This document shows, piece by piece, positions 3,986-20,913 of a stretch of DNA of 64,000 nt; positions within the stretch are counted from its first letter, which is position 1, and each line of letters begins with the position of its first letter. Under the pieces are notes generated by a model. That model was not told the origin of the DNA, did no database searches, and was given only the letters and a program-made list of their open reading frames with translations. The stretch covers positions 169,787-233,786 of the IMG/VR virus record IMGVR_UViG_3300015214_000024, one strand, 5' to 3'. The position numbers and the translations under genes were made by a program. Source of the DNA: a virus. Its lineage: Duplodnaviria > Heunggongvirae > Uroviricota > Caudoviricetes.

Positions 3986-4507
3986 ATGAAAAATTATGGT
4001 TGGTCGTCTCTGATGATAAAATTCAATGAGACAATTAATAATCAAATTATATCGTTTGCTAATCAGGTAATTCCAATCGAATATCAGAGCGATCCAGAAA
4101 ATGGATCAGGTATTGTAACTGATCCACATATCAGTCTTATTACTGATTTGGAAATAACCTATCCAGAACATAAAATACGTGAAATAATAAAAAATATTCC
4201 ATCGTTTAAAGTTGAATTTGGGACCATTTCTTTTTTTAGAAATGACACAGTTGATGTGGCTAAAATTGATATTGAAAGCGATCAATTAAACGAGATTCAT
4301 TATCACCTGAAAGAGTTAATCCCCAATCATTACAAATTTGATGAATATCATCCACATTGTACGTTAGCCTTTGTTAAACCTGGAACGTGTGACTTTATAC
4401 TACAGCAATCAAATTATTTTCGTGGTATAAATTTTCAAGTTGATTGGATTAATTATAATTCAGCCAAAGGCGTGACATATCCTATAAAAATTAATCAAAA
4501 AAGTTAA
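3986..4507 (+). CDS. 2H phosphoesterase (Acb1/T4 57B-like)
   Basis: Two HxS/T motifs: PHISL and PHCTL. Confidence 0.75.
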   Translation: MKNYGWSSLMIKFNETINNQIISFANQVIPIEYQSDPENGSGIVTDPHISLITDLEITYPEHKIREIIKNIPSFKVEFGTISFFRNDTVDVAKIDIESDQLNEIHYHLKELIPNHYKFDEYHPHCTLAFVKPGTCDFILQQSNYFRGINFQVDWINYNSAKGVTYPIKINQKS

Positions 4508-4560
4508 AAAACACGCCAAAAGTGGTTGACTTTTAAGTTATCTGTATATATATTAATAGA

Positions 4561-4781
4561 ACATAGACGCTGATGCGTAGTATTCAGTTACTTCGATAGA
4601 ACGCTCAAAACGAATGGCCCTGGCCATTTATTGCACCAGGAGGTGAAAATCCTTCAATTCAAATCGATGGCGGGTAACTCCTAACCTGGTATTTGAAATG
4701 CTAACAGATAAAGGCTAGTTAGCAGGACGGTATTCCTTATTACCAAAGCTTCTGGATACGATATTAACACAGTGTTATGGT
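4561..4781 (+). ncRNA. Y-RNA-like ncRNA 1 (directly upstream of Ro60)
   Basis: GCGUA-GUAUUCAG-UUACUUCG 5' motif; CUGGAUAC complement; paired ends; TTGACT promoter at ~4526. Confidence 0.7.
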
Positions 4782-4892
4782 CAATTTATTGAGCCCTAAA
4801 GTTAAGGAGGTCACCTTTGAAGGACCGTCCCTGGCTTTAGGGACAATCTAGATCATATCGCTGTCCGATGAAGAAAAGAAGAGGAAAGAGAT

Positions 4893-6452
4893 ATGAAGTT
4901 CAATACACCAGGTCAAGCACCAATTCAATCACAAACGTCACCAAATACCGTTACTCACGAAGGCGCACCATCATATAAGTTTGATTCCATTATGGAACTT
5001 TATATGGCAGTTGCGACCACACTTATGGGTGAACCAAAGTTTTATGAATCAGGTGATGAACGCGCTAAGCGCATTCGCCGTTTGATTTCCAAAGCAGTCC
5101 AATCTGGTGAAATTGAAACTGTAGCAAAGTTGGCAGTTTACTGCCGTGAAACTTTGAACCTACGTTCAGTCCCAATCTTTATCACTGTATCTTTGGCGAA
5201 GGAAATTCGTGATCAAAAGATCGCCTGGGACGGCCTCCGCCGCCTCGCTAACCGGGTTATTCAACGTGCTGACGAAGTTCGCGAAATGTTCGCTGCTGCT
5301 GAGCAAATTTTCGGTGATAACCAGAACAACAAAGTGTTTAAGCGCATTGTTCCAAAGGCTCTCTTAAAGGGCATCGGTGATTCTTTGAACAAGTTTGATG
5401 AATACCAGATTGCCAAGTACAAGGGTGGTTCAGGCGCAGTGTCGTTCAAGGACGTTCTTCGAGTCATTCACCCAAAGCCAGCTAACGAATCAAAGGGAAT
5501 TCTTTTCGCTAAGATTATGAATGATTCTTTGGCCCCAGCTGACACTTGGGAAAATAAGATCTCAAACGAAGGCTCAACGTCTGAAAATTGGCAAGAAATT
5601 GCCAATGACTCAAAGGTTGGTATTATGGCAAAGCTTCGCAATTTGCGCAACTTTGTCAAGCACAAGGTTGATTTGACAAATGTCATCGCACATTTGACCA
5701 ACCCAGTCGCAGTAGCCAACAGCAAGCAATTGCCATTCCGTTGGTACACTGCGTATCGTGAACTTGGCGGTGAAAGTATGAAGCGCAATTGGTATTACCG
5801 CGCACCAACTCCAGAAGTAGTTGCTCCAGCAAACCTTTTGGGTGCTTTGGAAGATGCTTTTGATTTGTCAATTGCAAACTTGCCAGATTTGGGTGATGAT
5901 GTTTTGATTATCGCTGACCAGAGCGGTTCAATGCAGAGCCCAATCAGTCAAAAGAGCACAGTAACTTGTGCGGAAATCGCCGCTGTTTTGGCAGCCGGTG
6001 TTTGGTTCAACCAAACACGCTTAGGTAAGCGCGCTTTTGTGGCCGGCTTTGCTGATCGCGGTAAGGTCTACTCGTGGAGCAATCGTACATCAGCTTTGGC
6101 TGCGGCTAAAGAAATGATGAATACTGAGCTTGGCGGTTCTACTCGAATTGACACGGCTTGGCAGGCTGCTAAAGCTGCTGGTTTGAAACCATCAACTATT
6201 ATCGTCTTGAGCGATATGCAGATGACGGGCTCACATTATGAGCGTTTGATGGATCCAGAAGCTTATGGCTTGGCCAATGTCAACACTCTTAAATTGTCAG
6301 TTAACCTTCAAGGTTATGACAACACGCCATTGGCTGTTAATAACGGCTGGTACCAGCTAACTGGTTGGAGTGAAAAGATCTTCAGCTTCGTTGAAGCTAT
6401 GCGCAATCCAAGCGATGCGATAAATCAGATCAAGAATTCAATCCAACTTTAA
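4893..6452 (+). CDS. rsr: Ro60/TROVE-domain RNA-binding protein with vWA domain
   Basis: RADE, KFDEYQIAKY, LRNLRN, QLPFR motifs; DQSGSM MIDAS motif. Confidence 0.92.
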   Translation: MKFNTPGQAPIQSQTSPNTVTHEGAPSYKFDSIMELYMAVATTLMGEPKFYESGDERAKRIRRLISKAVQSGEIETVAKLAVYCRETLNLRSVPIFITVSLAKEIRDQKIAWDGLRRLANRVIQRADEVREMFAAAEQIFGDNQNNKVFKRIVPKALLKGIGDSLNKFDEYQIAKYKGGSGAVSFKDVLRVIHPKPANESKGILFAKIMNDSLAPADTWENKISNEGSTSENWQEIANDSKVGIMAKLRNLRNFVKHKVDLTNVIAHLTNPVAVANSKQLPFRWYTAYRELGGESMKRNWYYRAPTPEVVAPANLLGALEDAFDLSIANLPDLGDDVLIIADQSGSMQSPISQKSTVTCAEIAAVLAAGVWFNQTRLGKRAFVAGFADRGKVYSWSNRTSALAAAKEMMNTELGGSTRIDTAWQAAKAAGLKPSTIIVLSDMQMTGSHYERLMDPEAYGLANVNTLKLSVNLQGYDNTPLAVNNGWYQLTGWSEKIFSFVEAMRNPSDAINQIKNSIQL

Positions 6453-7159
6453 TGAGAAGGAAAAAGGGCGGGATGCTCAAAAATTGGTATATTCAGAAAG
6501 TTAAAAAGCCCGGCGCTGAAACATTGGATGGCTGGGAGAATTGGACTGAAAAAACCAAAAATGAGCATCCTGCCCTTTATTTTCTGTTTGAAACGTTACC
6601 GAGATTTTTTTCAGTAAAAAAACGCCGAATTTGGGATTTGAAATACCACCTCAAACAAAAATATTTTCACGGATATCACAATTTACGCCTTGATGTAAAA
6701 CGGTTTAAAGCACCGTATAACAAAGAAAGATTGCACAAATATTCGTGGATGGATGCAGATAGTCAAATGGAATTGTTTATGTTCCAAATCTTAGTCAACT
6801 TTATTGAAAAAGAAGTTGGATATAATCAATTTGTCGAAATTGCATATGATGACGAAAAAAACAATACTTCTGATCGATACAAAGAATTACTTGAGCTGTA
6901 TCATTGGTTTATTGACGACTATTGCGATCAATCATTTTCAGATTTGCTACACAAAGAATTGTACGATCAATTTCCAGATTTCAAATCATTACGGAAAACA
7001 TCGCTTTTTTCAAAACCAAAAACCCAGCGTGAACGTGACTATCATCAGGCAAATGCAATAATGATGTCTAAAATATCAGATCGTGATGAAATTCTTGAAG
7101 AACAAATGGGAAACAATTTAATTAAATTGATTAAATTGCGTGGCTGTATGTGGACATAA
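6452..7159 (+). CDS. Hypothetical protein
   Basis: 235-aa ORF coupled to the Ro60 stop. Confidence 0.7.
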   Translation: MRRKKGGMLKNWYIQKVKKPGAETLDGWENWTEKTKNEHPALYFLFETLPRFFSVKKRRIWDLKYHLKQKYFHGYHNLRLDVKRFKAPYNKERLHKYSWMDADSQMELFMFQILVNFIEKEVGYNQFVEIAYDDEKNNTSDRYKELLELYHWFIDDYCDQSFSDLLHKELYDQFPDFKSLRKTSLFSKPKTQRERDYHQANAIMMSKISDRDEILEEQMGNNLIKLIKLRGCMWT

Positions 7160-7220
7160 TTTGTTTGACAAAGAAAATAAACCAGTATAATATGCAATAT
7201 CAACCCAAATAGGAGATTAA

Positions 7221-7736
7221 ATGAAAACTCAAACTGTTAAAATGAATAGGGATATTAGGGAACAATCGGTTCGTCTTATTGACGAAAACGGTAACCAATT
7301 AGGAATTATGCCTACCAACACTGCTCTGAATCTTGCCGCCGAGCGAGAACTAGATTTGGTAGAAATTAATCCCGGTGAAATTCCAGTTTGTAAAATTATG
7401 GATTGGGGCAAAGAGCAGTATCGAAAGAAAAAGCTCAAGCACCAGCAGCAAATTAACAGCAAGAAACAAGAAACAAAAGAGCTGTATCTCCGACCAGTAA
7501 CTGGTGAACACGACATTCAGATTAAAGTGCGCCAGGCAATGAAGTTCTTAGAGCAAGGACACAAGGTTAAAATTGGTATGAAATTCCAAGGCCGAGAAAT
7601 GGCCCACCGCGATGTTGGCCAATCAGTTATGGAATCGATTATTGATCAATTTTCCAATCGGTCTATTGAACATATGCCATTCCGTAATAATCAAATCCAG
7701 ATCATCATTTCGCCCACACCAAGTAAGGCGAAATGA
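7221..7736 (+). CDS. infC: Translation initiation factor IF-3
   Basis: VRLIDENG..LDLVEI..PVCKIMDWGK..HD..K..FL..GHKVK..GREMAH. Confidence 0.95.
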   Translation: MKTQTVKMNRDIREQSVRLIDENGNQLGIMPTNTALNLAAERELDLVEINPGEIPVCKIMDWGKEQYRKKKLKHQQQINSKKQETKELYLRPVTGEHDIQIKVRQAMKFLEQGHKVKIGMKFQGREMAHRDVGQSVMESIIDQFSNRSIEHMPFRNNQIQIIISPTPSKAK

Positions 7737-9058: not shown

Positions 9059-10243
9059 GTGATGTTATACGATCATCGTAAAATTGGCCGAGAAATGGGC
9101 CTATTTCATATTCAAGAAGACGCCGCAGGCTCAGTATTTTGGCACCCACGCGGCTATGCACTTTACCGTAATATTGAAAATTATATTCGAATGAAACAAC
9201 TTCAGTATGGCTATGACGAAGTCAAAAGTCCACAACTGTATGATGTTTCACTTTGGAAAAAGAGTGGTCATTGGGATCACTTCAAGGAAAATATGTATTC
9301 TATTGAGGATTCAAATTTCTCCTTGAAACCTATGAATTGTCCAGGCCACATTCAAATCTTCAATTCTGACCTAATTTCTTATAAACAACTACCTTTGCGG
9401 CTGGCTGAATTTGGTTGTTGCCATCGTAATGAGCCATCTGGTGCATTACACGGTATAATGCGTGTCCGACAGTTTGTCCAAGATGACGCTCATATTTTTT
9501 GTATGGAAAACCAGATTCAATCAGAAGCATTAGCATTTTGTAAAATGCTTCAGGAAGTTTATGATGATTTTGGATTTAAAAATATCAAAGTAGCCTTAAG
9601 TCTGAGACCGGATGACCGTGCTGGCAATGACGCTGATTGGGATTTGGCCGAACAGGCATTAGAGGAAGCCATCAAGCAGGCCGGGTTTGAATACATTCTC
9701 CAGCCAGGTGAAGGTGCATTTTACGGTCCTAAATTGGAATTTGCACTAATCGACCAAGGCGGCCGTGAATGGCAATGTGGTACCATACAATTAGACTTTG
9801 TTTTGGCTGGACGACTTGGGGCAAAATATGTTGCTCAAGATGGTAGCCAAAAAGTGCCAGTTATTTTACACCGTGCAGTATTGGGTTCATTAGAACGATT
9901 TATTGGTATTCTTTTAGAGCATTATGGTAAGGATTTACCAGTATGGCTATTAAAAGACCAATTTGCTGTTTTGCCAATCAAGCCATCAGTCAATGATTAC
10001 GCTTGCAATGTGAAAGAAGCTGTGCTACAATTTGGCTTTAATGCAGAATTGGATTCTGATGATATTTCTCTTGGTGACAAGATTAAAAAATATTATCATA
10101 TTCCCAATCTCATTATTATCGGAGACCGTGAGGCTAAAAACGGCCAAGTTGTTTGGCGAAAACTTGATGGTTCACAGGAAGTTATTGATTTACATATTTT
10201 TTATGAAAAAGTGAAAAATGTGAAAAATCCGTTGAAAAAGTAA
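9059..10243 (+). CDS. thrS: Threonyl-tRNA synthetase lacking N-terminal editing domains
   Basis: DHRKIG, LKPMNCPGH, RVRQFVQDDAH, GEGAFYGPK, HRAVLGSLERF. Confidence 0.95.
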   Translation: MMLYDHRKIGREMGLFHIQEDAAGSVFWHPRGYALYRNIENYIRMKQLQYGYDEVKSPQLYDVSLWKKSGHWDHFKENMYSIEDSNFSLKPMNCPGHIQIFNSDLISYKQLPLRLAEFGCCHRNEPSGALHGIMRVRQFVQDDAHIFCMENQIQSEALAFCKMLQEVYDDFGFKNIKVALSLRPDDRAGNDADWDLAEQALEEAIKQAGFEYILQPGEGAFYGPKLEFALIDQGGREWQCGTIQLDFVLAGRLGAKYVAQDGSQKVPVILHRAVLGSLERFIGILLEHYGKDLPVWLLKDQFAVLPIKPSVNDYACNVKEAVLQFGFNAELDSDDISLGDKIKKYYHIPNLIIIGDREAKNGQVVWRKLDGSQEVIDLHIFYEKVKNVKNPLKK

Positions 10244-10454: not shown

Positions 10455-10531
10455 GGTGGCATAACGCAAACAGGTGAGCGGACTGACTGTGAATCAGTTG
10501 TTAGAGGGTTCAAGTCCCTTGTGTCACACCA
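10455..10531 (+). tRNA. tRNA-His(GUG), A73 type
   Basis: Cloverleaf, loop CUGUGAA, CCA. Confidence 0.9.
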
Positions 10532-10840: not shown

Positions 10841-10916
10841 GGTGACTGAAGTGTTGACGGATACACGCTTGGTTGTGAACCAGGAGTAACGGGCTCGATA
10901 CCCGTTGGTCACCCCA
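10841..10916 (+). tRNA. tRNA-His(GUG), G-1:C73 type
   Basis: Loop UUGUGAA, CCCA end. Confidence 0.9.
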
Positions 10917-14241: not shown

Positions 14242-14871
14242 TGAATGGCTTCTTCACTTCAAAAATGGGCGTCCCGGAATTTGCCCAGGACATACTTCGT
14301 CTTAGAAGAGAATATGAAGATGAAATCGATAGTTTGGTTAATTATAAGCAAAATGGTATTATAAGTACCCAAACATTGATGGAAAGAACAAGTTCAGCGG
14401 TTGAGAAATATGATCAGCTTTTCATCAATGCGTTCAATAGTCTAAGTATTGCAAACCGAATTGATCTAATATCTAAATGGGTAGAATTTAATAATTTTGC
14501 TGAACAGGGAATTTTTGAAGACAGTGAAATTTTATTAGCGGCAGCAAGGATTGTTCGATGAATGTGAAAGAATTTGAAGAACAATTTCATAAATTGCACG
14601 AAGTCTACAGTCATAAAAGTAATGAAATGGGCGTTCGCCTTAAAGCAAAATACGAAAAAGAGGTCAAAGAGCTCTCAGAGCAAATAGATAATGAATTATT
14701 TGACGAAATTGGCAAATTATTTAAGAGTATGGATTTTGAGGACAAGGTTTATTTCTTAGAAATTTATGTAGCCAGACACAAATTGGCCAAATATATAGAA
14801 CCACACGAATTGACAGCTTTGCGAATTATGGAATGGCCATATTTAAAATATTTAGAAACGAGGGAATAAAA

Positions 14872-15681
14872 ATGGTAGTACATTGGGTAATTGATCGAGC
14901 ATTAGGTAGAGCAGAGGGTGGTTATGAGCACCTTGTAAATTGCCTTGAACGTACTGGTACGCCATATACTCTTGTCCGCAAGCCACCGTTTGCTGATTAT
15001 CTAATCGGATTGGGTGACGATCATACGCCCATTACTATCGACGTTCCAAATCCAGTATTTGTTACTGGAACGACTTCAATGCGTCTTGTCTGTGAAAAAA
15101 TGGATTGGAATCCAGGATATATTGATGCGCCAGGTCAGGAAGAGCTTAAAGCTCATTGGGGTGATGAACTCTTAAACTATGATTCAATTGTAGGTACTTT
15201 TAGAGATATACAGCCACCTCCTGGAGCATTCTTCATCCGTCCTGTTGAAGATACAAAATCTTTCTCTGGTCAAATTATGGATGAAGCAACTCAATTTGAA
15301 TATTGGCGAAAGAGTTTGATTGATATTGAAAATTCAGTCACTACATTGAAGCCGGATGATTTAATTATGATGGCTCCGTTGAAACGTATCTATGCAGAGT
15401 ATAGACTTTATGTAGTTGATGGTGAAATTATCACAGGATCGAGATACAAACTTGGCAACAAAGTTTTTTATACCACCGATCTTGACCCTGGTATGATAGA
15501 ATACGCCAAGGAGCGAATTAAGGAATATTGTCCACGTAGAGCATTGTGTCTTGATATTGCTGAAATTGAAGGTGAAAAGGTAACCTATAAGGTTATTGAA
15601 ACTAACGCTATATCAAGTTCAGGATTTTATGCTTGTGATATGGCAAAGTTTGCAGATGCAATCAATGGCGCATTCAGTTAA
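14872..15681 (+). CDS. ATP-grasp domain protein (R2K/DUF4343-like)
   Basis: FFIRPVEDTKSFSG, EYRLYVVDG, IETN..SSGFY. Confidence 0.75.
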   Translation: MVVHWVIDRALGRAEGGYEHLVNCLERTGTPYTLVRKPPFADYLIGLGDDHTPITIDVPNPVFVTGTTSMRLVCEKMDWNPGYIDAPGQEELKAHWGDELLNYDSIVGTFRDIQPPPGAFFIRPVEDTKSFSGQIMDEATQFEYWRKSLIDIENSVTTLKPDDLIMMAPLKRIYAEYRLYVVDGEIITGSRYKLGNKVFYTTDLDPGMIEYAKERIKEYCPRRALCLDIAEIEGEKVTYKVIETNAISSSGFYACDMAKFADAINGAFS

Positions 15682-15745
15682 TGGTGCGCCATTGACTTCC
15701 CCTTTGTGTGATTGTATAAACACATAAATTTATAGGAGATTTTTA

Positions 15746-16117
15746 ATGACTGGTCTGATTTATGTCGCTTCACCTTATAGTGATCCTGACAAACAAGTAG
15801 TTCAACTTAGAATGAACAAATTTGCCGGAATTATGGCGAAGCTTATTGAGCACAAATTCCACCCAGTTAGCCCATTACTCAATCACTATTTGGCCGATGT
15901 AGTTACTGTCAATTTCCCACTAACTTGGGACTGGTGGCAGGATTATTCCCGTTTACTCCTTTCAAAGTGTGATCATATGATTGTGATTGGTCCTGATTGG
16001 GAAAAATCAACAGGGACAATGGCAGAAATTGAAATAGCCACTGAATTGAGCATTCCAATCAGCTATTTGACAACTTATAAAGATATTGAAAATTTCATCA
16101 ATCCTGTAGTAGACTGA
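15746..16117 (+). CDS. DUF1937/nucleoside deoxyribosyltransferase-like protein
   Basis: IYVASPYS...W..S.G..AEI..A. Confidence 0.7.
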   Translation: MTGLIYVASPYSDPDKQVVQLRMNKFAGIMAKLIEHKFHPVSPLLNHYLADVVTVNFPLTWDWWQDYSRLLLSKCDHMIVIGPDWEKSTGTMAEIEIATELSIPISYLTTYKDIENFINPVVD

Positions 16118-16140
16118 AAGAAAAGCTATGCAGGTAATTT

Positions 16141-16551
16141 ATGATAAAAATCGAAAAGCCGTGGGGAAATTATATCTCTTTATATGAGGGAGATTTACCT
16201 TATGATAAAATACAAATCAAAACATTGACAGTTTTGTCAGGCCAACGACTTTCACTACAATCGCATAAACATAGAAAAGAATATTGGTTAGTAGTTTCAG
16301 GAAATCCTACTATTGAGGTAGAGCAATCAGAAAGAGACTATTTTATTGGTGATTTAATTAAAATCCTTCCCAATCAAAGACATAGATTGTCTAATCAATA
16401 TACTGACCCAGTTGTAGTAGTCGAAGTTCAGACTGGTCCATATTTGGGCGAAGATGACATCATTCGCTATGAGGATGACTATAATCGTGATGATGTTGAG
16501 GAAATGCAAAATATAATAAGGCAAACAAAAGAGCAGTCTGGTGAAGAATAA
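16141..16551 (+). CDS. Mannose-6-phosphate isomerase type II cupin domain
   Basis: KPWG, RLSLQSH.HR.E.W, EVQTG.YLGEDDIIRYEDDY. Confidence 0.9.
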   Translation: MIKIEKPWGNYISLYEGDLPYDKIQIKTLTVLSGQRLSLQSHKHRKEYWLVVSGNPTIEVEQSERDYFIGDLIKILPNQRHRLSNQYTDPVVVVEVQTGPYLGEDDIIRYEDDYNRDDVEEMQNIIRQTKEQSGEE

Positions 16552-16763
16552 AAAACTTAGTACAGTTTACTTGCCTAAAGAACTGGACGACTGCCTTAAA
16601 GAGATGGCGCTTATGTTTTCATCAAGTGGTGAAACAATATCAGTCAACCAATTAATTGGTGCAATTTTATGTTTCCAATTTGGTGATTTGGAAGCTATTG
16701 ACAATGATCTTTTAAGAACATATTATACGCTCCTTAGTTGAGAGTTATTTGGAGGAAAATATA

Positions 16764-17385
16764 ATGCTACGTGGTACACGTTTGATTGAGGGCAAGGAAG
16801 CTCAAACATTTAATGAAGTAATTGATACCTTTCGGAGGTTAGTTCATCCAGTCTGATTTCGAAGAAATCATTGTTCCCAGTATTTGGGAACAAGAAACCT
16901 TTTTGGCCAAAACTGGCCCAGAACTATCTAAACAAATGTGGACCTTTAAGGATAAAGGTGATCGAGACGTTTGTTTGATTCCTGAAGTTACCGGTATTTT
17001 TCAAGAAACTTGGCGTGAAAAATGGTCCAAGTCAATGAAATTCCGTAAAGTGTTTTACGTACAACGCTGTTATAGGTATGAAAGGCCGCAAGCTGGCCGT
17101 TATCGTGAATTTACGCAATTGGGTATTGAAATCCTTGGTAACTATGATAATGGTGATCAAGAGGCTCAAGATTTGTTGAAAGCTGGTCTTGACGCAATTG
17201 GTGTAGAGTATGAATTTGATTCAACCGCGACACGTGGTCTCGGATACTACACTGAGCTTGGTTTTGAAGCTCGTTGCGAATCACTTGGTGCGCAAAAGCA
17301 AGTAGCAGGCGGCGGCCGTTATGCTGAAGGTGTTGGATGGGCTATTGGTGTTGACCGACTGGTTTTAGCTAAAATGAATAAATGA
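16764..17385 (+). CDS. hisS: Minimal histidyl-tRNA synthetase, split by a +1 frameshift at ~16845
   Basis: MLRGTR N-terminus in frame 0; +1 frame gives FEEIIVP, LIPEVT, RYERPQAGRYREFTQ, RGLGYYT, GGGRY, GWAIGVDRL. Confidence 0.85.
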
Positions 17386-20280: not shown

Positions 20281-20292
20281 TTGGAGAATAAT

Positions 20293-20913
20293 ATGACACC
20301 TTTCGAGAAAAAACTTCTTACTCTCCGCCAACAGCTTATTGGTGCCCGATATTACAATGCTCTTACGGCATTGGATTTTGCAATGGCTTACCACACTGGT
20401 ACTCGAAAGGATGGCGTCACTCCTGAATTTCAACATCAGGTCGAAATTGCACTATATGCGCTAACGCTTGCTGATGTAAAATATCGTGAAGAAGTGATCG
20501 CTACTATTATGCTTCACGATGTTCGCGAAGACTATAGTATTACTGATTATGAAATTGCTCATCTTTTTGACAGCAATGAATTTACTCTTCGAGTAAACCA
20601 AGCTGTGGAAAATATGACCAAAGAATGGCGCGGCATTAAAAAGGATGAAGCTCAGCTTTTTGAAGCAATGGCCATTGATCCTATTGCCAGTATTGCCAAA
20701 GGCTGTGACCGAATTCATAATTTGGGATCAATGGTCGGAGTTTTTAAAATTGAGAAACAGAAGGCTTATTTGGAAGAAGTTGACCGGTTATTCATACCGA
20801 TGCTAAAAACAGCTCGAAAGAAATTTGCATATCAGCATAATGCATATATGAATATTCTTCATATGATGCGTAGCCAATGTGATCTCATTAGAGCGATTCA
20901 TGAAGCCACCTAA
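20293..20913 (+). CDS. HD-domain (p)ppGpp hydrolase-like protein
   Basis: H.G.RKDG.TP...H, LHDVRED, K..DR.HN. Confidence 0.8.
   Translation: MTPFEKKLLTLRQQLIGARYYNALTALDFAMAYHTGTRKDGVTPEFQHQVEIALYALTLADVKYREEVIATIMLHDVREDYSITDYEIAHLFDSNEFTLRVNQAVENMTKEWRGIKKDEAQLFEAMAIDPIASIAKGCDRIHNLGSMVGVFKIEKQKAYLEEVDRLFIPMLKTARKKFAYQHNAYMNILHMMRSQCDLIRAIHEAT

Follow-up and report, generated by a model that had tools for sequence, protein, structure and literature searches.

The split reading frame and its proposed shift site

The window analysed here is a stretch of 64,000 nucleotides (nt) from a 455-kb virus record (IMGVR_UViG_3300015214_000024), a jumbo phage with at least 69 tRNA genes whose DNA probably stems from a landfill metagenome. 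In a translation-related region of this window, with a threonyl-tRNA synthetase (ThrRS), initiation factor 3 (IF3) and a tRNA array nearby, lies a small gene for a histidyl-tRNA synthetase (HisRS), here called mini-HisRS, which is divided over two reading frames; all its elements described below are on the plus strand. The first open reading frame (ORF1, 16764-16856) runs for 30 codons from the ATG at 16764 to a TGA at 16854-16856, encodes the N-terminal arm and first helix of HisRS and, read without a shift, ends in Arg-Arg-Leu-Val-His-Pro-Val-TGA. The body follows in the +1 frame (16846-17385, 179 codons), carries the class II motifs 1-3 of HisRS and contains no His codon. A TAG in the +1 frame (16840-16842) sets the 5' limit of any shift; beyond it this frame is open for 180 codons up to the TAA at 17383-17385, and the overlap of the two frames is GTT-CAT-CCA-GTC. 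Around this overlap, an internal Shine-Dalgarno (SD)-like GGAGG (16834-16838), the putative stimulator, ends 3 nt 5' of the shift codon GTT, followed by the putative shift site GUU-C (16842-16845) and the candidate gate codon CAU (16845-16847), which would stand in the ribosomal A site and is the sole His codon of ORF1. The 0-frame TGA closes ORF1 two codons past this gate.

An earlier reading of this DNA from its letters alone (the sequence-only reading) had proposed both the division into ORF1 and a +1-frame HisRS body and the confinement of the shift to these four codons with their single CAT. Both proposals stand, the division being backed by the reading frames, by the fact that ORF1 aligns to the N-terminal part of in-frame homologs (56% across 27 amino acids, aa) and by matches of the body to PF13393 and TIGR00442 (hisS) in profile searches. 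Skipping of C16845 would give a joined product of 206 aa. Its register is that of the in-frame homologs, which are 205-213 aa long, and the junction predicted earlier, Val followed by Ile, agrees with it. Within ORF1, entropy at third codon positions is 1.77 versus 1.14 and 0.92 at the other positions, which indicates a protein-level constraint in this frame. The initiation SD, GGAGG at 16751-16755, lies 8 nt ahead of the ATG, and an SD-like site precedes ORF1 in 52 of the 56 split homologs introduced below. The complete pattern, in which an SD-like run is followed after 3 nt by (C/G)TT, with a 0-frame stop close by and a long +1 frame, occurs at a single place in the 455-kb genome.

Two independent contigs, each from another study, cross the junction with 0 gaps: contig X3 record 5 spans 16275-16958 with 8 substitutions, and contig X5 record 13 spans 16731-17008 with 11. 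The indel error that had been considered a possible source of the break is thereby excluded as far as contigs allow. The closest relatives carry the identical break, and the same break is also found in isolate genomes and in a cultured phage.

Conservation of the shift cassette

About 130 loci from viral, metagenome and genome scans were classified and reduced to 86 non-redundant homologs at <85% identity, 56 of which are split in the +1 direction and 30 in frame. The split homologs are 36-84% identical and come from jumbo phages, the cultured phage Phosso, Pseudomonas, Chromobacterium, Thalassospira and Azospirillum. In these 56 genes the P-site codon is CTT (41) or, as in the window, the minority codon GTT (15), and nothing else; elsewhere CTT accounts for 15% of the codons for Leu, and GTT for 17% of those for Val. 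The A-site codon is CAT (45) or CAC (11), and again nothing else, meaning that both His synonyms are used at the gate and no other codon starting with C. The codon ahead of the P-site codon varies freely (20 different codons), and the codon entered in the +1 frame is ATC in 24 genes, ATT in 19, ACT in 8, ATA and ACG in 2 each and ACC in 1, but never ATG. A further eight split loci, which were fetched later from other collections and include three on Burkholderia or Paraburkholderia replicons, fit as well (8/8). The layout resembling that of release factor 2 (RF2), together with the His gate, had been noticed in the window gene, and it is conserved throughout the split homologs and the later loci. 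Conservation of the split among relatives was found only in part: 56/86 homologs are split and have the cassette, whereas the other 30/86 are in frame without the motif. These in-frame homologs do not refute a frameshift, because prfB, the RF2 gene, has the same patchy pattern. Two of them, L099 and L139, read GTT ATC and CTT ATC at the site, which is the cassette minus the skipped C and supports both the register and secondary loss.

Pairing with the anti-SD has a sharp maximum at the 5-mer whose end is 3 nt ahead of the P-site codon (GGAGG 26, GGGGG 10, GGAGC 9). Pairing at or below -5 kcal/mol was found in 43/48 genes split at the commonest site, 25 codons past the RG motif, compared with 6/38 other homologs in the same column (p 6e-13, uncorrected for kinship, as are the other column counts). 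The matching column holds Ile or Thr in all 48 of these split genes and in just 8/38 other homologs, indicating that the protein does not force the cassette. Arg codons inside the SD are CGG or AGG in 76/81 cases versus 258/999 (26%) elsewhere. A 0-frame stop lies at most 5 codons past the gate in 54/56 genes (96%), compared with 21% for random positions in the body and 43% at the corresponding column of in-frame genes, the latter value implying that the near stop is partly protein-driven. In L110 and L141 the overlap with ORF1 contains two His codons, and the second, at codon 25, was taken as the gate.

The cassette is found at several positions. Its distance past the RG motif is 25 codons in 48 genes, 16-17 in 6, 21 in L145 and 69 in L030, the last two sites being represented by single sequences each. 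The genes with sites 16-17 and 21 form a separate, well-supported clade with in-frame genes intermixed. L030 groups among in-frame genes (Shimodaira-Hasegawa-like approximate likelihood ratio test, SH-aLRT, 99 and 91 in two trees); it has a decayed site at 25, and an Asp-Ile to Gln-Val change creates AGGTG 3 nt ahead of its CTT-CAT. Placing sites 25 and 69 in one clade was weakly rejected (approximately unbiased test, p-AU 0.036), and a DNA pattern scan for further codon-69 sites returned L030 itself alone. On the quick tree the split or in-frame state changes 13 times, with few of these changes forced by strongly supported branches.

A second family-wide feature is the avoidance of histidine. 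Of the 11,695 residues in the joined split products, 6 are His (0.05%), and 50/56 products are devoid of it, while the His share is 0.52% in the in-frame genes, 1.1% in full-length HisRS and 2.7% in neighbouring ORFs. Such poverty across the whole mini-HisRS family would be expected for an enzyme that is required under scarcity of His-tRNA.

The protein, its tRNA and neighbouring genes

The sequence-only reading had named full-length HisRS as the product of the shift. This has to be corrected: the joined 206-aa protein corresponds to a minimal catalytic core. It scores 144 bits with TIGR00442 (hisS, cut-off 287) and 84 bits with TIGR00443 (hisZ, cut-off 272), in both cases below the cut-off; a separate comparison gave E values of 1e-22 for hisS and 1e-4 for hisZ. 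Its length is also outside the 310-430 aa of HisZ. The catalytic-motif residues are invariant and were aligned to the HisRS of Thermus thermophilus. The invariant body residues are E48, T50, R78, Q83, R86, R88, Q92, E96, R131, Y135, Y136, GGG156-158 and R172, which we take to bind His and ATP. The predicted structure of an in-frame homolog (P0026; predicted local distance difference test, pLDDT, 89.6) has the class II catalytic fold with motifs 1-3 and superposes on 1ADJ, the HisRS of T. thermophilus, at Z 24.6, the root-mean-square deviation (rmsd) being 1.9 Å over 204 residues. The model covers residues 5-320 of the 1ADJ chain with the insertion domain absent, and the part corresponding to ORF1 forms helix 11-29. 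The HisZ fold scores close behind (1Z7M, Z 22.4). No C-terminal anticodon-binding domain is present in the gene, which ends at 17383-17385, and the only PF03129 match of the genome is ThrRS.

Five bacterial carriers each hold HisZ, a HisS frame of 418-500 codons and mini-HisRS as a third copy. Because these carriers have their own HisZ and HisS, mini-HisRS is accessory. We regard its product as a catalytic core reduced to about 205 aa, with predicted aminoacylation activity. In Burkholderia and Paraburkholderia, RefSeq gives the +1 body a false start and the name HisZ (WP_062174891.1, WP_051374196.1 and WP_180727380.1, our L261-L263); these are split mini-HisRS genes.

The likely substrate is encoded upstream. 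A tRNA-His(GUG) at 10455-10531 on the plus strand has an encoded G-1, A73, CCA and a long D loop. ARAGORN missed it and its low-threshold output was noise; the call is based on an Rfam match (RF00005, 10456-10528, 44.8 bits) and pairing by hand, as minimum free energy folding gave no cloverleaf. Rfam also detected other tRNAs missed by ARAGORN, at 10842, 11158, 13023 and 21579. Across the family, tRNA-His is the commonest tRNA near mini-HisRS, being present in 30 of the 50 loci with any tRNA in their flanks; in phage Phosso it lies 297 nt upstream of the gene. The end types of these neighbouring tRNAs are G-1/C73 in 28 cases and G-1/A73 in 4. Six loci (L005, L006, L007, L008, L081 and L163) have two kinds of tRNA-His: one has G-1/C73, whereas the other lacks G-1 and has U72/A73, an identity set that belongs to Caulobacter-type alphaproteobacteria (PMC3064791). 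If the host enzyme could not charge a phage tRNA, this would explain a private synthetase that reads the acceptor end. The bacterial copies have no tRNA nearby and stand alone among variable housekeeping genes.

Regarding the surroundings, a sigma-70-like promoter match (16698-16726, plus strand, 11/12 consensus bases, 17-nt spacer) lies directly upstream of the gene; this is a consensus match only, in a region that holds 20 such sites versus 12.4 expected. R2K ATP-grasp, DUF1937 and cupin genes (14833-16551) precede mini-HisRS, an order kept in close relatives. The ThrRS (9059-10243) is in frame and has just 394 aa, with catalytic and anticodon-binding domains and no N-terminal editing region. 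A similar ThrRS is found in phage Phosso; host assignment through ThrRS gave matches of only about 52%, spread over several proteobacteria. Further upstream, 3986-7736 encodes a 2H phosphoesterase (2'-5' RNA ligase or Acb1-like), a TROVE/Ro60 protein and IF3, candidates for RNA repair, anti-defence and translation functions. An HD_4 protein of the type that hydrolyses (p)ppGpp is encoded 3 kb downstream (20281-20913), and an HD_4 gene also follows mini-HisRS in L267; by damping the stringent response such a protein could raise shifting at hungry codons. Beyond the window, ARAGORN found two tRNA genes with CUA anticodon in genome C1 (15281-15358 and 165512-165586), and the genes near mini-HisRS are normal under table 11.

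Proposed mechanism, alternatives and known systems

The SD of prfB is separated from the shift site by 3 nt, the distance stated for +1 shifting (PMC5009743), and a low level of cognate aminoacyl-tRNA at the A site promotes the +1 shift at a slippery P site (PMC2377451). The equal geometry at mini-HisRS, together with this A-site effect, points to a shift gated by His-tRNA. From the split, the conserved cassette and its geometry, the His depletion, the fold and the tRNA-His linkage, we infer that ribosomes shift at this site, that the shift rate follows His-tRNA and that the protein aminoacylates. That a programmed +1 shift takes place at all seems to us almost certain. It is likely, as far as comparative data can tell, that mini-HisRS is an accessory minimal HisRS under autoregulatory, His-tRNA-gated +1 programmed frameshifting with negative feedback. 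We also favour, with somewhat greater reserve, a wider interpretation as a functional hungry-codon switch. Here, a synthetase gene would gauge its own product, His-tRNA, by a regulated +1 shift at the cognate codon; the cassette would have arisen or moved more than once in the family, and it would gate a stand-alone 205-aa core. This core would support charging in the host whenever the host's HisRS or tRNA-His is limiting, comes under attack or does not match the phage tRNA.

In this mechanism, the ribosome would start at 16764 and arrive with GUU in the P site and CAU in the A site, its anti-SD paired to the GGAGG 3 nt upstream. With plentiful His-tRNA, CAU would be decoded and the stop reached two codons on, giving a dead peptide of 30 aa. 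With scarce His-tRNA, the A site would stay empty, peptidyl-tRNA-Val would slip from GUU to UUC, and reading of AUC (Ile) would lead to the 206-aa enzyme. As the body has no His codon, the enzyme could be completed during the shortage. It would then charge tRNA-His via the acceptor end and close the negative feedback loop. The sensed quantity would be charged tRNA-His, which the synthetase could restore only if charging capacity, and not histidine, is limiting.

Several observations weigh against this mechanism. A re-pairable CUU-Y at the P site is given by CTT-C in 41/56 genes, whereas the window gene and 14 others have GTT-C, where slipping of GUU to UUC requires a first-position C-U mismatch and should be weaker than with CUU. 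Some split genes lack a clear SD (L026, L027), and 30 homologs manage without any shift. The in-frame homologs are likewise His-poor, and a tree-corrected test of extra His depletion in the split genes had just 3 supported pairs. The tRNA-His of the window phage has A73 and not the C73 of most neighbouring tRNAs, charging by a core without anticodon-binding domain is a prediction, and the coverage of RNA run X6 does not reach the junction.

Other routes to the +1 frame were considered and rejected. A shifty stop, with tRNA-His occupying the P site and a stop codon in the A site, fails because the stop directly follows His in just 25/56 genes and tRNA-His cannot re-pair on AUY. A -2 shift is at odds with the free codon before the P-site codon, transcriptional slippage with the absence of a homopolymer run, and an upstream shift at GGG-G with the +1 TAG that blocks it in the window gene and in L015. 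A perfect 9-bp hairpin lies at 16871-16893, 23 nt past the gate codon, and is not conserved in the mini-HisRS family. Despite this hairpin, a 3' RNA stimulator was rejected, since the family mean z of about -0.7 is the same as 30 codons downstream.

Among the alternative explanations, a real but constitutive shift would provide a low fixed enzyme level, CAY being kept as tRNA-His always decodes slowly. P-site slippage is indeed the main driver of +1 shifting, with a modest A-site effect of about 2-fold in a kinetic model (PMC2377451), and the dependence on His-tRNA proposed above is itself deduced. However, slow CGG, CGA, CUA or CCC would then serve equally, yet 56/56 genes use His, the enzyme's own substrate; the His gate recurs at four positions and other His codons are purged. 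We therefore consider a constitutive shift unlikely. Slightly less probable still is that the shift senses His-tRNA for a product that is not a working tRNA ligase, such as a HisZ-like regulator, a His sensor or a ligase to another acceptor. The missing anticodon-binding domain, which is not encoded separately either, the HisZ label in RefSeq, the close score of 1Z7M and the bacterial copies without nearby tRNA would fit such a product. The nearer match to hisS than to hisZ, the invariant His- and ATP-binding motifs, the hosts' own HisZ and HisS and the clustering of phage copies with tRNA-His argue for a ligase.

Two separate ORFs, with a body that initiates by itself at the AUY codon 7 nt past the SD-like run, are very improbable, even though 7 nt is a good initiation spacing: the supposed start is never ATG in the 56 split genes, the invariant (C/G)TT-C is left unexplained, a start at the codon-69 site would remove motif 1, and in the structural model ORF1 supplies helix 11-29 of the fold. 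A sequencing error or pseudogene, as a metagenome assembly and 30 in-frame homologs might suggest, is hardly credible given the gap-free independent contigs, the recurrence of the break in genomes of isolates and in a cultured phage, and the codon-position constraint on both ORFs; conservation already refutes it.

The gated shift at mini-HisRS is a candidate functional hungry-codon shift with strong comparative support and culturable carriers, namely Sinorhizobium phage Phosso, Pseudomonas, Paraburkholderia and Azospirillum. If true, it would be a new route of sensing tRNA charging beside T-boxes and attenuation, would offer a portable 14-nt amino-acid sensor and would show how phages guard translation capacity. 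The finding would also set right the annotation of a family that is now wrongly called HisZ and given wrong starts, and a HisRS core of 205 aa occurring in nature is relevant to synthetase evolution and to orthogonal pairs.

The closest known system is prfB (CUU-UGA-C with internal SD; PMC5009743), with which mini-HisRS shares the 3-nt distance from the internal SD to the shift codon, the predominance of CUU in the P site, the +1 direction, a short ORF1 of about 26-30 codons, a product relieving the triggering shortage and patchy loss in in-frame lineages. In contrast to prfB, the gate is a sense codon (His in 56/56) and not UGA, the sensor would be aminoacyl-tRNA supply and not release factor, the slip goes to UUC, GUU is tolerated, a stop follows the gate and the cassette occupies several gene positions. 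The mini-HisRS site would work like prfB but is not a prfB site. A P-site CUU beside a slowly decoded sense codon also recalls the hungry-codon frameshifting of Gallant and the CUU-AGG-C of yeast Ty1 and ABP140. Unlike here, Ty1 has a constitutively rare tRNA, no SD and a product that does not charge that tRNA, and bacterial starvation shifts are regarded as error without a known functional case, a 2016 review knowing of no hungry-codon frameshift with a product useful under starvation (PMC5009743).

With class IIa HisRS (T. thermophilus 1ADJ/4RDX, E. coli 1KMM) the protein shares the catalytic fold, motifs 1-3 and the PE-x-T, RGL-x-YY and GGG-x-Y loops, differing from bacterial enzymes in its size (about 205 versus 420 aa), the absent insertion and anticodon-binding domains and its accessory role beside a normal hisS. 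Like HisZ, the regulatory subunit of ATP phosphoribosyltransferase, it has a HisRS-like fold without anticodon-binding domain; unlike HisZ, it is much shorter, scores better with hisS and keeps the catalytic motifs, and a true HisZ is encoded separately by its hosts. T-box riboswitches and leader-peptide attenuation (pheST, his operon) tune synthetase or pathway genes by cognate tRNA charging, acting on transcription termination or initiation through RNA structure. At mini-HisRS, by contrast, the sensor would be a single codon inside the gene itself, and the family shows no conserved 3' structure. Literature searches, with most subscription journals outside their scope, returned no description of the mini-HisRS family or of frameshift control of a synthetase. 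Overall, the RF2 cassette, the hungry codon and the HisRS core are known parts, and what would be new is their combination as an aminoacyl-tRNA sensor.
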